Below the pieces are notes generated by a model that was not told where the DNA came from, searched no databases, and saw only the letters and a program-made list of their open reading frames with translations. Shown here piece after piece: positions 57,314-60,489 of a stretch of 64,000 nt of DNA. The stretch comes from Patescibacteria group bacterium. Its GTDB lineage: Bacteria > Patescibacteriota > UBA1384 > XYA2-FULL-43-10 > 1-14-0-10-43-13. A program made the translations under genes and the position numbers. The stretch covers positions 430,564-494,563 of the forward strand of contig JBAZNP010000001.1 of NCBI GenBank assembly GCA_041649155.1, given 5' to 3'. The stretch's first letter is position 1; the number at the start of each line of letters is the position of its first letter.

Positions 57314-57492
57314 GTATTCCTTCCTTCTTAAATGGCTCATAATTAATGTAGTATATGATGGGAAGTTTGGCAATCCCATTTGATAAAATAGGATCACATT
57401 GAATAATATTATTAAATAATCAGGGTTTACACTTGTGCCTGATTATGTTAATATTTTTATTGTTTAGTAAGGATCGGGGCTTGTGTAAATTC

Positions 57493-57567
57493 GCCGATGT
57501 AGCTCAGTGGTAGAGCAGAGGACTGAAAATCCTTGTGTCGTCAGTTCAATTCTGACCATCGGCACCA
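57493..57567 (+). tRNA. tRNA-Phe (GAA)
   Basis: GCCGATGTAGCTCAGTGGTAGAGC...CTGAAAA...GGTTCAATTC...CATCGGCACCA. Cloverleaf by eye. Confidence 0.85.
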
Positions 57568-57594
57568 TTCGACTCGTCGTCGATAAATTTGTTT

Positions 57595-57668
57595 GGTCTG
57601 GTGGCCGAGTGGTTAGGCAGCGGTCTGCAAAACCGCGTACCCCGGTTCAAGTCCGGGCCAGACCTCCA
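57595..57668 (+). tRNA. tRNA-Cys (GCA)
   Basis: Acceptor GGTCTGG/CCAGACC, anticodon loop CTGCAAA and T-arm CCGGTTCAAGTCCGG. Confidence 0.75.
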
Positions 57669-57758
57669 AAATTAGAATTAAGAATCTGGAATTACGAATC
57701 AAGAAGAATTGAAAATTTATCCATAATTCATTATTCTATATTCATAATTCTTTCATGT

Positions 57759-57833
57759 GCGGGTATCGTATAGCGGCTATTATACGTCCTTGCCAAGGAT
57801 GAGATACGGGTTCGACTCCCGTTACCCGCTCCA
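57759..57833 (+). tRNA. tRNA-Gly (GCC)
   Basis: GCGGGTATCGTATAGCGG...CCTTGCCAAGG...GGTTCGACTCCCGTTACCCGCTCCA. Confidence 0.85.
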
Positions 57834-57878
57834 TAATAAAAGCCACAGCTTGTCTGTGGCTTTTATTATGGAGCGGGT
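57824..57878 (+). terminator. 25-bp perfect inverted repeat (hairpin terminator) whose left arm includes the last 10 nt of tRNA-Gly
   Basis: ACCCGCTCCATAATAAAAGCCACAG-CTTGT-CTGTGGCTTTTATTATGGAGCGGGT, seen directly. Confidence 0.6.
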
Positions 57879-58000
57879 TAGAATTTTATGTCAATTTATC
57901 AAATGTGCCCAGTTCATTTTTATTGACAGAATAAAGAAAATATTCTATAAGAATATTGACAAGGCGTTGCTTTAAGAGCGCTTTGAAGCATTAAAAAAAT

Positions 58001-58285
58001 TTGAAAGGGGTGGCTAGACTGTGCATTGAACAGATTCGTGCGGTAGTAGAGGGAAACATTGTTTTCGGTAAAAATGGCTCTTATATCGTCACTCGGCCTA
58101 TTGATCGAGATGATTTAGGGTCAATTACGTTCTCTATGTCTGTTTGGTCTGAAGAAACACAACCTGAATCAGGACACGTTGTCATTTTGGAAGCGCTTAC
58201 AAAGAAGCGCGGAGGATGGCGAGCTGGTCAGGCGAGATTTCTTCGGCTGGAAGACGAGAGACCAGCAATCAGCAAAGGAGCATAA
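58001..58285 (+). CDS. Hypothetical small protein (94 aa), first gene of a higher-GC two-gene cassette. Start ambiguous (TTG 58001 or GTG 58010).
   Basis: Promoter-like TTGACA-17-TATAAG at about 57927-57955. The stop TAA at 58283 lies 2 nt before the TTG start of the next gene, whose SD AAAGGAG lies inside this ORF's 3' end. Confidence 0.4.
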   Translation: MKGVARLCIEQIRAVVEGNIVFGKNGSYIVTRPIDRDDLGSITFSMSVWSEETQPESGHVVILEALTKKRGGWRAGQARFLRLEDERPAISKGA

Positions 58286-58287
58286 AA

Positions 58288-60333
58288 TTGGGAAAAGCTG
58301 TAGCTACAGGAAGAGGTAATGAGGATGTTGTTGAGCTTGAGCAATTGCGATTGTCTCCAGTCGTGCGAGATTACCCCGAGCCTTGTTTTTGGGAAGAGGA
58401 CAGCGAGAGACTTGCACACATAACAATCGTAAATGGCAACGATTTTCCGAAGCAGAATATACTTGAAGGTCTCGGAATTGTCTCCGGACTCAGTAGCTCG
58501 TTTGGTATTTGCGACCCAGAGGAGATCAGAAAGCGTATCTCCTTAATGCGATTTTTCTGCGAAAATCCGGATATCAGAGAATGGTTTTCAGGGATGCGGA
58601 TAAAATTTGATATGCCGAATAATGAGCAGACTTTTGTGTCGTTCATTAACACAGGAGAGCGCAACCCCTATTGGTCTGGTGTTCATGAATTTTTAGGAGT
58701 AATGAACAAGACCAAAAACAAGAAATTGATGCCTGATGAACTGGCATCGTTTCTGAGAGTACTGGAAAGGTCAGCGGGTCTTGAGCAGGATGAACAGGCG
58801 ATGTTTGCTGCCATCGACAAACGGATTCAGAACATTGCTCATCTGGAAGGGTTTGTTGAGTTCGGTGTATCTCAGTTCACCAGTTCTAGTTGGTACCTAG
58901 TCAACGGAAAAGAAGATGGTGTTACTCACAAGGCTTCTCTTTCGGCTATGCGAACTGCGTGTTTTGGTTATCGTCGCTATTCAGAGGCAATCCGGAACTT
59001 TACTTCGAAACCTTATCCGGAGTGGTTTGACCAGTGGTGGAATCCAAGACGTTGGTTCGCAAATATTGAGGTAGAGAAAAAGCGAATTGATGAAATGAAC
59101 GCAGAGGCAAGGGCTGCAGTATATGCGGATCAATCAGTATTATCAATTCCGGATATGCTGCTGGCTGATATTCATAAGGCGGTAACTGATCGTATTAACA
59201 GTTTGCGCCTTGGTGTACGTGATCTTGCGTATGGATGTTTGTTAGTGCGTTTCTCCTATGCTTCAGGCAGGTTGAGACTCCAGATCTACAATCTCACGGT
59301 TGGATCTTATTCCAGTGCGCCGGAATTCCAGTTCGCCAAAGAAGACGTGTACAGGGGCAAGGTTGCAGAGGAAATGTGCTCTAACTGGGAACACCTGGAT
59401 CAGCAGATGAATGATCAGATACTGTCGGTCGCGAGCGTTGGCATACGTCGTAAGCTGCTCAAACAGAACAAGAATCTATTTTGCGAGTTTGAAGCGCCTA
59501 GTCCTCAAACAAACGAGAAGTACCAATGGGATTCATTGAGTACTTTCTATCGCCATCTGGCGGTAGATGCAGTCTACACTGAGTGCATCAAGCATAGGCG
59601 GTACTTCTCGGCCAGCTTTGCCCAGCTCGGACGGATAAGTTCATTAGCTGAACGGCTCTGTGACGTGGCGCGCGAGTTGAAAGCTCCTCTATGCTATCCT
59701 GAGATCGTGGAAGAAGAGGATGATTCGGTCGTCGAATTCGATGGAATTTATCCTGTTGCTTTGTTGGCTGATCTTGCTGGCAAAAAGCCGGTCACGATCA
59801 AGGGGAGTATTTCAGGGGCAAGCCAAGTGGTGGGTCTAACTGGCAGAAACACTGGTGGTAAGACGGTCACTGCATTAACAATTGCAGCTAACATCTGGTT
59901 GGCTCAGAGCGGACTTCCGGTTCTTGGGCGATCGTTCCGTCTGAACGTCAAAAAGACTCTTGGTATGGTGTTTTTGGGTAAGGACGAAGGTTCGAGAAGT
60001 GACATCTTGCTGGGCAAGATCAAAGCGGTTCTCGAAGTTGCTTGCGTTCACAAAGGCAGTGAGATGGTAGTTATCGTGGACGAGCTTGGGGAAGGAACTC
60101 AGGAATCCTCCGGCGAAGTGTTTGGAAAGAGACTTCTGGCTACGCTTGCCGATAAGGGCATTACTACTCTATTCACAACGCAAATACTTGGTGTTGCTGA
60201 GTATGCCCAGGATTATCTGGATGCCCAATGCTATCGCTTGGATGCCAAACATCGTATGTGGTCTGGCATCGGCGGCGGCCAATTTGAGGCGTTGTTGAAA
60301 GAGCGTGGTATTGAAAAGCTCTTAGTACAGTAA
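58288..60333 (+). CDS. Divergent MutS2-like ABC ATPase (MutS domain V) with a ~520-aa uncharacterised N-terminal region and no Smr or mismatch-binding domains
   Basis: Walker A LTGRNTGGKTV (MutS2 reads GPNTGGKTV), Walker B/D-loop VVIVDELGEGTQESSGE and signature region ST..ILG. The protein ends about 20 aa after the ATPase. TTG start with an SD. GC by eye is about 10 points above neighbours. Confidence 0.55.
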   Translation: MGKAVATGRGNEDVVELEQLRLSPVVRDYPEPCFWEEDSERLAHITIVNGNDFPKQNILEGLGIVSGLSSSFGICDPEEIRKRISLMRFFCENPDIREWFSGMRIKFDMPNNEQTFVSFINTGERNPYWSGVHEFLGVMNKTKNKKLMPDELASFLRVLERSAGLEQDEQAMFAAIDKRIQNIAHLEGFVEFGVSQFTSSSWYLVNGKEDGVTHKASLSAMRTACFGYRRYSEAIRNFTSKPYPEWFDQWWNPRRWFANIEVEKKRIDEMNAEARAAVYADQSVLSIPDMLLADIHKAVTDRINSLRLGVRDLAYGCLLVRFSYASGRLRLQIYNLTVGSYSSAPEFQFAKEDVYRGKVAEEMCSNWEHLDQQMNDQILSVASVGIRRKLLKQNKNLFCEFEAPSPQTNEKYQWDSLSTFYRHLAVDAVYTECIKHRRYFSASFAQLGRISSLAERLCDVARELKAPLCYPEIVEEEDDSVVEFDGIYPVALLADLAGKKPVTIKGSISGASQVVGLTGRNTGGKTVTALTIAANIWLAQSGLPVLGRSFRLNVKKTLGMVFLGKDEGSRSDILLGKIKAVLEVACVHKGSEMVVIVDELGEGTQESSGEVFGKRLLATLADKGITTLFTTQILGVAEYAQDYLDAQCYRLDAKHRMWSGIGGGQFEALLKERGIEKLLVQ

Positions 60334-60489
60334 ACGCTAAAGCGTTTCAGGAAAATATTTATCCTTCCGGCATTGTTGCTGGGAGGATTTTTTTTAGCCG
60401 TTTTTATCGTCTTTGGGGTTGTAAATAAGTGTAAAGTCCAGTATTATGCTTGAAAAGCAAGGCAAATCAGTTTATTATGTTAAACATAC

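Follow-up and report, generated by a model that had tools for sequence, protein, structure and literature searches.

Which task might a MutS-like ATPase perform when it carries neither a nuclease nor a ribosome-binding module, and how has its gene arrived in the small genome where it is found? This question is raised by a two-gene operon located in a stretch of 64,000 nucleotides (nt) from a metagenome-assembled genome of the Patescibacteria (candidate phyla radiation; assembly GCA_041649155.1, contig JBAZNP010000001.1, positions 430,564 to 494,563); we refer to the whole of this stretch as “the window”. The operon lies between a tRNA-Phe/Cys/Gly cluster and the gene secG, and it consists of a small open reading frame (ORF), followed by a large ORF whose product of 681 amino acids (aa) is identical to its NCBI entry, WC536_02570. 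A preliminary description, made from the nucleotide sequence, had taken the large protein for a MutS2-like ATPase that lacks the Smr nuclease, and the pair for an acquired island and a plausible defence system. Our own reading, to which we assign a probability of roughly 0.55, takes the large protein for a MutS clamp without a nuclease, spread horizontally, that would act on DNA by sensing or remodelling it, with the small protein as an optional adaptor.

MutS proteins are central to mismatch repair, to the control of recombination and, by recent evidence, to the rescue of collided ribosomes, and the family of the large protein displays the MutS2 core without the nuclease or the ribosome-binding module. 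The hosts of this family have minimal genomes, so that each retained or imported gene is informative, and the family itself seems to move between very distant lineages; being publicly unnamed, and lying below or near the Pfam thresholds, it is missed by current annotation. The coupled, optional small protein represents a second new family, which could reveal how such clamps are targeted.

Fold and motifs of the large protein

By sequence, only the C-terminal 210 aa of the large protein are recognisable. Pfam MutS_V matches this part with 22 bits, under its cut-off of 30.2; the best NCBIfam match is the lysine 5,6-aminomutase reactivase KamC (NF052383; 45.4 bits against a cut-off of 300, in the ATPase only), while MutS2 (TIGR01069) reaches 37.4 bits against an equivalog cut-off of 400; MutS2 chains from the Protein Data Bank (PDB) match at E=2.8e-8. 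The profile-profile comparison (hhalign) of the family with MutS2 gives a probability of 99.4%, in the ATPase part only, with the alignment ending at the C-terminus, and the link of the N-terminal 470 aa to the N-terminus of MutS2, although collinear, is not significant in the same comparison; the kinship of the N-terminal part to MutS2 is visible by structure alone.

The structural evidence comes from an AlphaFold2 model (predicted local distance difference test score 90.2, predicted template modelling score 0.83), which is mostly helical in its N-terminal part. The model matches, in order of score (with the length of the match in parentheses), MSH3 at 25.8 (379), MSH6 at 25.4 (390), MSH2 at 25.3 (374), T. 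maritima MutS2 at 24.6 (390 of 484; 9kce_B), B. subtilis MutS2 at 24.2 (388; 7qv3_v), Taq MutS at 23.3 (362) and T. thermophilus MutS2 at 20.2 (369; 7vuf_B), and ordinary ABC ATPases at 11-13 (about 145-225); Foldseek agrees with these values, at E ~1e-13. It follows that ~190-200 residues located N-terminal of the ATPase correspond to the lever/clamp core of MutS2, and the model thus shows a predicted fold that is composed of a MutS2-type core (lever/clamp) and a MutS domain V ABC ATPase. The N-terminal region, which had initially seemed to match nothing recognisable, is indeed without a match in sequence, but has one in structure. It had also been considered that this region might be merely MutS domains III/IV, in a protein that clusters with Smr-bearing MutS2; this is not fully what we have found, as no such clustering occurs.

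Compared to MutS2, the large protein has ~200-290 additional N-terminal residues that are specific to its family, and these appear in the model to include a long β-hairpin with a hypervariable tip (residues 184-229) and a Trp-rich segment (residues 233-288). The lever helices and the 233-288 segment are net positive across the family. Outside the ATPase, the best-conserved stretch is formed by residues 28-110, and a conserved N-terminal motif of the family, SFGITD..EI..RQ.L.RFL, looks like the beginning of MutS domain III.

The ATPase carries the features that define the MutS superfamily: Walker A, Walker B with its Asp-Glu pair (D598-E599) and a signature-like Ser (S569), all intact, are found in the MutS_V arrangement, with the core, lever and clamp located N-terminal of them. 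At the H-loop, the “TH” of MutS proteins is replaced by “TQ”, with Q632 aligned to the His of MutS2, and this replacement occurs in at least 90% of the family members. The large protein stops after the last helices of domain V. A Pfam scan across 70 members has found MutS_V in 65 and MutS_III in one, and Smr, KOW, domain I or domain II in none. An Smr-less, MutS2-like ATPase, as proposed in the preliminary description, is thus what the analysis supports, though the match in sequence is weak.

Is the large gene functional at all? It could be a recently acquired passenger that has no function and is heading for decay: the Walker A of the window protein (GRNTGGKT) deviates slightly from that of the family (GxHGGGKT), and the family genes at two other loci (L023, 7615-9775, and L026, 7812-10005) are split into two ORFs by frameshifts, i.e. 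they are either pseudogenes or assembly errors. Against this stand the intact ORF of 681 aa, in which all the invariant residues of the family are kept, the strong Shine-Dalgarno sequence, the promoter-like site and the terminator that accompany it, and the conservation of the small partner at 38-45% identity, and we regard a decaying passenger as quite improbable.

A rare family and its facultative small partner

To delimit the family, we have conducted an exhaustive phmmer search with residues 1-510 against 1.84 billion representatives, with the matches clustered at 50% identity. The search has returned 169 clusters (127 at E<1e-10), whose identity to the window protein over the N-terminal 510 aa does not exceed 34%; almost all the members are 640-700 aa long. 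The large protein is consequently not an orphan, as a word-indexed search, which returned the protein itself and weak, ATPase-only MutS2 matches, would have it. Ten members that we have looked up belong to clusters of one or two sequences, are unnamed or named “hypothetical protein”, and none of them comes from a cultured organism. A pattern scan of the GTDB species genomes has located 35 family loci, most of them in Patescibacteria (Nealson-, Nomura-, Falkow-, Vogel- and Uhrbacteria, and Paceibacterota), and the family tree is star-like. These results show that the family, of at least 169 clusters, is rare, fast-evolving and scattered over the Patescibacteria.

Two of the loci lead outside this group. 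Locus L007 (gene 3929-5860) is situated on an archaeal contig, with RPA directly downstream, RadA at a distance of 5 kb and a Prismane-family protein nearby; at locus L010 (gene 3347-5407), a gene for a phosphate-selective outer-membrane porin adjoins the family gene. From these two contigs, the family appears to have crossed the boundaries of both domain and phylum.

As a rule, the family gene is solitary, preceded by a gap of 150-300 nt, and any given neighbour is shared by three of the 35 loci at most. The 123 nearest neighbours of 34 loci belong to 147 Pfam families, the commonest of which are housekeeping families: GTPases, elongation factors, SecA, ribonucleotide reductase, UvrD, RecR and ribosomal protein L10. 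Integrases, transposases and known defence families do not appear in the top 25 of these Pfam families. Full-length copies have not been found in IMG/VR (which contains only distant ATPase-domain matches) or in phage and plasmid collections, as searched with tblastn, and BFVD contains only the MutS7 and MutS8 of giant viruses. A search of the literature on MutS in candidate-phyla bacteria has retrieved nothing relevant at the level of titles and abstracts; the family, that of the small protein and the GC anomaly described below are all absent from the annotation and the literature that we have searched.

The small protein has no match in 5.8 billion proteins, Pfam, NCBIfam, PADLOC, PHROG or the PDB. 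It is nevertheless not an orphan, since homologues have turned up in the neighbourhoods of the closest relatives of the large protein: small ORFs of 82-100 aa are located upstream of the family gene, on the same strand, at loci L131 (P0037), L134 (P0041) and L135 (P0042), at distances of 51, 19 and 2 nt, and their products are 45%, 38% and 42% identical to the window small protein, respectively (pairwise BLASTP E=1e-17 for L131). The four small proteins share the invariant core Y.V...TF..VW.E..P..G..V.L..K..GWRA..ARF, and the junction at L135 repeats the layout of the window, with AAGGAGG inside the small ORF, followed by TAA, 2 nt and ATG. A hidden Markov model of these four proteins has no match at any other family locus, not even at those of the close relatives P0038, P0071, P0094, P0048, P0040, P0046 and P0050; the partner is thus present in 4 of ~45 family loci, with ~40 lacking it, and none of the 35 GTDB loci has a homologue of it. 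Among the six frames, the codon score is highest in that of the small ORF itself. An alternative origin, i.e. that the small ORF is the decayed ATPase end of a second family gene, has been rejected: hhalign gives E=0.037, HMMER gives nothing, and 13 of 150 shuffled sequences reach an equal score. To judge from sequence and gene order, the small ORF is a genuine gene of a new family (~85-100 aa) and a facultative partner of the large gene. Its product is basic (isoelectric point 9.0), with a C-terminal motif rich in Arg, Lys and Trp, and this charge and motif would fit the binding of nucleic acids. The pairing to which the preliminary description had drawn attention is hence seen again at three other members, upstream of which a homologous small ORF is found, but it does not extend to most of the family.

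The scarcity of the partner bears on two other explanations of the operon. The first is the one favoured in the preliminary description, namely a stand-alone or two-gene system of anti-phage defence or conflict, in which foreign nucleic acid would be sensed by the ATPase, with the small protein or the insertions serving as effector or adaptor. Several of our observations are in agreement with it: the sporadic distribution, with its singleton clusters and its star-like, fast-evolving tree; the presence and absence of the gene between close genomes, and the different neighbourhoods of L005 and L009 at 63% identity; the compositional anomaly that is described below; the optional, tightly coupled partner; and the transfer between bacteria and archaea. 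On the other hand, PADLOC-DB 2.0 gives only noise for the large protein (JetA at E=0.0016 and mad8 at E=0.0022, over short stretches) and leaves the small protein without a hit; effector domains, those of nucleases and toxins included, have not been detected; ~90% of the family genes stand alone; and the neighbours, which are housekeeping genes without a shared partner and whose 25 commonest Pfam families include none known from defence or mobile elements, and the lack of copies in the viral, phage and plasmid collections, point away from defence, which we consider unlikely.

The second explanation is a factor of ribosome quality control, analogous to MutS2/RqcU in splitting stalled or collided ribosomes, in which the small basic protein would replace the KOW and Smr domains in trans. 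Recruitment of the B. subtilis MutS2 to collided ribosomes proceeds through KOW and Smr (PMC10897456), two domains that the large protein lacks; the small protein has no similarity to the KOW/MSSS or the Smr regions of MutS2 and is itself missing next to ~90% of the family genes; and translation factors are not usually so rare and so scattered by horizontal transfer. We hold this explanation to be about as doubtful as that of a defence system. DNA is favoured over the ribosome as the substrate because KOW and Smr are absent, and because both the lever helices and the Trp-rich segment carry a net positive charge.

Insertion of the operon and its base composition

The history of the locus has been traced through the neighbouring gene ComM. 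A ComM-based scan of metagenome contigs has yielded 80 loci, of which the closest three are L040, L041 and L042, with ComM identities to the window of 71%, 70% and 66%, respectively. In L040 and L041, the gene order is ComM, a small membrane protein, tRNA-Phe/Cys/Gly, SecG, an SBP_bac_5 protein and tRNA-Leu(cag); L042 has the same genes, but with tRNA-Cys and tRNA-Gly inverted and tRNA-Phe located downstream of the SBP gene. Between tRNA-Gly and secG, both genes of the operon are absent in all three, and the spacing is ~65-300 nt, compared to 2656 nt in the window. Since the closest syntenic relatives lack both genes, the 2.5-kb operon is an acquired insertion, as had been proposed; a gain in the lineage of the window is more parsimonious than three losses. 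Absence from the same site in related genomes is thus joined to a deviant composition, as is expected of an island. The intergenic DNA of the sister loci is too diverged for an alignment to fix the exact borders of the insertion.

The tRNA cluster, which forms the upstream border of the insert and lies outside it, is the same in L040 and L041. The preliminary description had linked the acquisition to the tRNA genes, but the insert is not a classical tRNA-integrating island, because no integrase gene is contained in it (ORF list and public record), its far border carries no directly repeated copy of the tRNA 3' end, and it begins past the terminator hairpin of tRNA-Gly; the 18-nt 3' end of tRNA-Gly is single-copy in the window, even at 3 mismatches, and a search for flanking direct or inverted repeats that could delimit a mobile element has found only pairs at chance level. 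At L040, a direct repeat of the 18-nt 3' end of tRNA-Gly is located at 10406-10423, ~160 nt downstream of the tRNA, resembling an att-like scar, and suggests a recombination hot spot at the flank of tRNA-Gly in this lineage.

The composition of the operon is uneven. The large gene has a guanine plus cytosine (GC) content of 0.473 and a GC content at third codon positions (GC3) of 0.477, and its GC is the highest among the 52 tabulated ORFs of the window (mean GC 0.390, standard deviation 0.036; mean GC3 0.360, standard deviation 0.052), ~2.3 standard deviations above the mean. The GC of the small ORF is 0.46, but its GC3 is 0.37, which is host-like, with the surplus coming from codon positions 1 and 2. 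The contrast in GC that had been seen by eye holds for the large gene; the flanking genes, however, are not uniformly at 36-38%, with ComM reaching 43%.

This anomaly recurs across the family: in many AT-rich hosts (L002-L036, L134), the family gene forms a sharply bounded, GC-rich island of one gene. At L009, flanks of ~0.30 GC surround a family gene of 0.46-0.51, with the step located exactly at the gene borders, and L013, L014 and L015 are alike; at L134, the GC3 of the family gene is 0.72, next to a flank GC of 0.45. The family gene exceeds all its neighbours in GC3 at 14 of 29 loci, where 3 are expected by chance (Wilcoxon test on GC3 z-scores of family gene versus neighbours, p=4e-5), and its mean GC3 is 0.488, versus 0.402 for the neighbours. 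In hosts with GC3 <0.45, the excess is +0.114 (positive in 18 of 21), while in GC-rich hosts it is about zero; the regression of GC3 has a slope of 0.73 (r=0.73). The loci with an excess are spread across the tree, and in the clade of L005, L009 and L013 (47-63% identical) the excess persists in neighbourhoods that differ among the three. The anomaly could originate from one-way transfer out of GC-rich reservoirs, from selection, or from biased conversion acting on the gene, and a single GC-richer gene in AT-rich hosts offers a clean test case for horizontal transfer versus selection or biased conversion.

The data on insertion and composition also bear on a further explanation, that the large gene is a lineage-specific, housekeeping orthologue of MutS2, i.e. 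a core gene that looks foreign through its amino-acid composition. The surroundings are housekeeping genes in all loci, and in several hosts the GC of the gene equals that of the host; yet the GC excess in AT-rich hosts occurs at synonymous sites, the family comprises only 169 clusters, and a relative of the large gene is present in none of the 80 ComM neighbourhoods fetched, in addition to its absence from the locus in the three closest relatives. The preliminary description had asked for homologues of native GC at the same locus throughout the lineage as the mark of a core gene, and this is not fully the pattern observed; the explanation is largely refuted, and we consider it very improbable.

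The features of the locus are collected in Table 1. The tRNA cluster, noted earlier, has been recovered by both ARAGORN and Rfam, and the promoter-like site is present as it had been described; it is missed by a consensus scan because its -10 hexamer ends in G and not in the usual T. The coupling of the two ORFs is likewise seen in the sequence: the stop codon of the small ORF (TAA, 58283-58285) is followed by 2 nt and the start codon of the large gene. An alternative start of the large ORF at ATG 58216 (705 aa) has been rejected, as the extension is unsupported by homologues. The left arm of the inverted repeat takes in the last 10 nt of tRNA-Gly; the repeat, which exceeds the length that is required of a terminator, looks like a bidirectional terminator.

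Table 1. Coordinates of the features of the two-gene operon and its borders; positions are those of the window.
Feature	Position	Strand	Remarks
tRNA-Phe(gaa)	57493-57567	+	ARAGORN, Rfam; first gene of the cluster 57493-57833
tRNA-Cys(gca)	57595-57668	+	ARAGORN, Rfam
tRNA-Gly(gcc)	57759-57833	+	ARAGORN, Rfam
Perfect 25-nt inverted repeat, 5-nt loop	57824-57848 / 57854-57878		A-tract/T-tract hairpin, terminator-like; repeat search, sequence
Promoter-like site TTGACA-17-TATAAG	57923-57951 (TTGACA 57923-28, TATAAG 57946-51)	+	sequence reading
Small ORF	58001 (TTG, 94 aa) or 58010 (GTG, 91 aa) to 58285	+	ORF list; 91 aa called in the public ENA record
Shine-Dalgarno AGGAG of the large gene	58276-58280	+	inside the 3' end of the small ORF, 7 nt upstream of TTG
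Large ORF, 681 aa	TTG 58288-60333	+	public record: hypothetical protein WC536_02570 (same 681 aa in NCBI/ENA)
Predicted divergent MutS2-like core, lever, clamp with family-specific insertions (residues ~28-470)	58369-59697	+	
MutS domain V ABC ATPase and C-terminal helix-turn-helix (residues ~471-681)	59698-60333	+	
Walker A (G519-T526)	59842-59865	+	intact
Walker B (V594-E599)	60067-60084	+	intact
T631-Q632, in place of the MutS “TH” H-loop	60178-60183	+	
Intrinsic-terminator-like hairpin, 12-bp stem, 4-nt loop, then T-run	60361-60395	+	end of operon; terminator scan, sequence
secG	60490-60708	+	Pfam SecG; downstream border of the insert, syntenic in L040-L042

The window has additional features outside the operon. 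Upstream of the tRNA cluster, an ORF of 139 aa (56440-56859, minus strand; GC 0.452, GC3 0.479), uncalled in the public record and with no match in Pfam or PHROG, is located in the gap between ComM and the membrane-protein gene, with a perfect TTGACA-17-TATAAT on the minus strand at 56843-56815; this gap measures 627 nt in the window and ~13 nt in L040-L042, and the region therefore looks like a second small insertion. Farther away, a c-di-GMP-I riboswitch aptamer (Rfam RF01051; 44.4 bits against a gathering score of 35) is located at 40347-40441 on the plus strand, just upstream of an ORF of 215 aa (40493-41140; GC 0.45) with no Pfam match. A protein of 126 aa from the 23S_rRNA_IVP family (PF05635) is encoded at 48902-49282 on the minus strand, with a very low GC of 0.297, inside the ATP synthase operon, between the genes of the gamma and beta subunits. 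Lastly, a single ORF of 2745 aa extends over 22382-30619 on the plus strand, with a GC content at second codon positions of 0.48, which is unusual for the genome.

Proposed action and comparison with known systems

As a nuclease-free MutS clamp, the large protein would form a homodimer that is switched by ATP on nucleic acid, as other MutS proteins are. Its substrate would be DNA, in the form of branched or recombination intermediates like those on which the MutS2 core and MutS-gamma act, and these intermediates may be sensed or remodelled by the protein instead of being cut. In ABC ATPases, the replacement of the H-loop His by Gln suggests slowed hydrolysis, and the Gln of the family would accordingly favour a slow, switch-like behaviour. 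The small basic protein may act as an optional adaptor or as a nucleic-acid-binding subunit, which translational coupling would supply in a fixed ratio.

Several points weigh against this proposal. The neighbours of the family genes are ordinary housekeeping genes, among which DNA-repair genes (RecR twice, UvrD twice, Pif1, and RPA/RadA) are not clearly enriched, and no genomic association favours DNA over the ribosome or another substrate. The role given to the small protein is a pure inference, and the start codon of its ORF has a poor ribosome-binding site. Loss in the three relatives stays an alternative to gain in the lineage of the window, and the boundary between the MutS2-like core and the family-specific residues is drawn from secondary structure and from the collinear hhalign alignment that lacks significance.

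The clamp proposal may be carried further, to a mobile module of a nuclease-free MutS clamp with an optional small basic adaptor, which would act alone in genome surveillance, anti-recombination or defence in the ultra-small Patescibacteria and in some archaea, and whose recurrent GC-rich signature, with its sharp bounds in AT-rich hosts, would be specific to the gene, arising from repeated one-way transfer out of GC-rich reservoirs, or from GC-biased conversion or repair at the locus of the gene, and not from ordinary drift; in this extended form, we regard it as speculative and rather unlikely.

Known systems resemble the operon in different parts. PARIS AriA/AriB, Septu PtuA/PtuB and Gabija GajA/GajB also pair an ABC-type ATPase with a small protein from the same transcript and are sporadically and horizontally spread; in contrast to them, the operon matches no PADLOC model, has no nuclease or toxin domain, is not set in a defence island, and has a partner that is absent in ~90% of the relatives. 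KamC is, like the large protein, a Smr-less, MutS-like ATPase, with the likeness confined to the ATPase and the score far under the cut-off, and no aminomutase family is found among the most frequent neighbour Pfam families of the 34 loci. MutS1 has domains I and II, whereas the large protein has no Pfam MutS_I or MutS_II and reaches 14.7 bits with NF003810, against a cut-off of 480.

Smr-less MutS paralogues with a patchy distribution are already on record as MutS3, MutS4 and MutS5 (Lin, Nei and Ma 2007, PMC2190696). As described there, they have, like the family of the large protein, an ATPase (MutSac) near the C-terminus and no mismatch-recognition domain, and they are patchily distributed, with suspected transfer between bacteria and archaea and with a function that is unknown or, for MutS5, consists of non-specific DNA binding; MutS4 occurs there as adjacent A/B pairs, unlike the single-copy family of the window (PMC2190696). 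This comparison is one of descriptions; the N-terminal 510 aa of the large protein have only metagenomic relatives, of ~650-700 aa.

In function, an analogy to the proposed clamp is offered by MSH4-MSH5 (MutS-gamma), a clamp without domain I and without nuclease that acts on recombination intermediates, although it is a eukaryotic heterodimer that keeps the connector domain, unlike the large protein. In kind, the closest known protein is MutS2/RqcU (TIGR01069; PDB 9kce, 7vuf, 7qv3), from which the family departs in several respects: MutS2 has KOW/MSSS (PF20297) and Smr (PF01713), the identity to it is only 25-30%, in the ATPase only, the family score fails, and MutS2 is broadly conserved, whereas the family of the window is rare and horizontally scattered. 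Next to MutS2, the family constitutes a new subfamily, with insertions and an H-loop Gln of its own.

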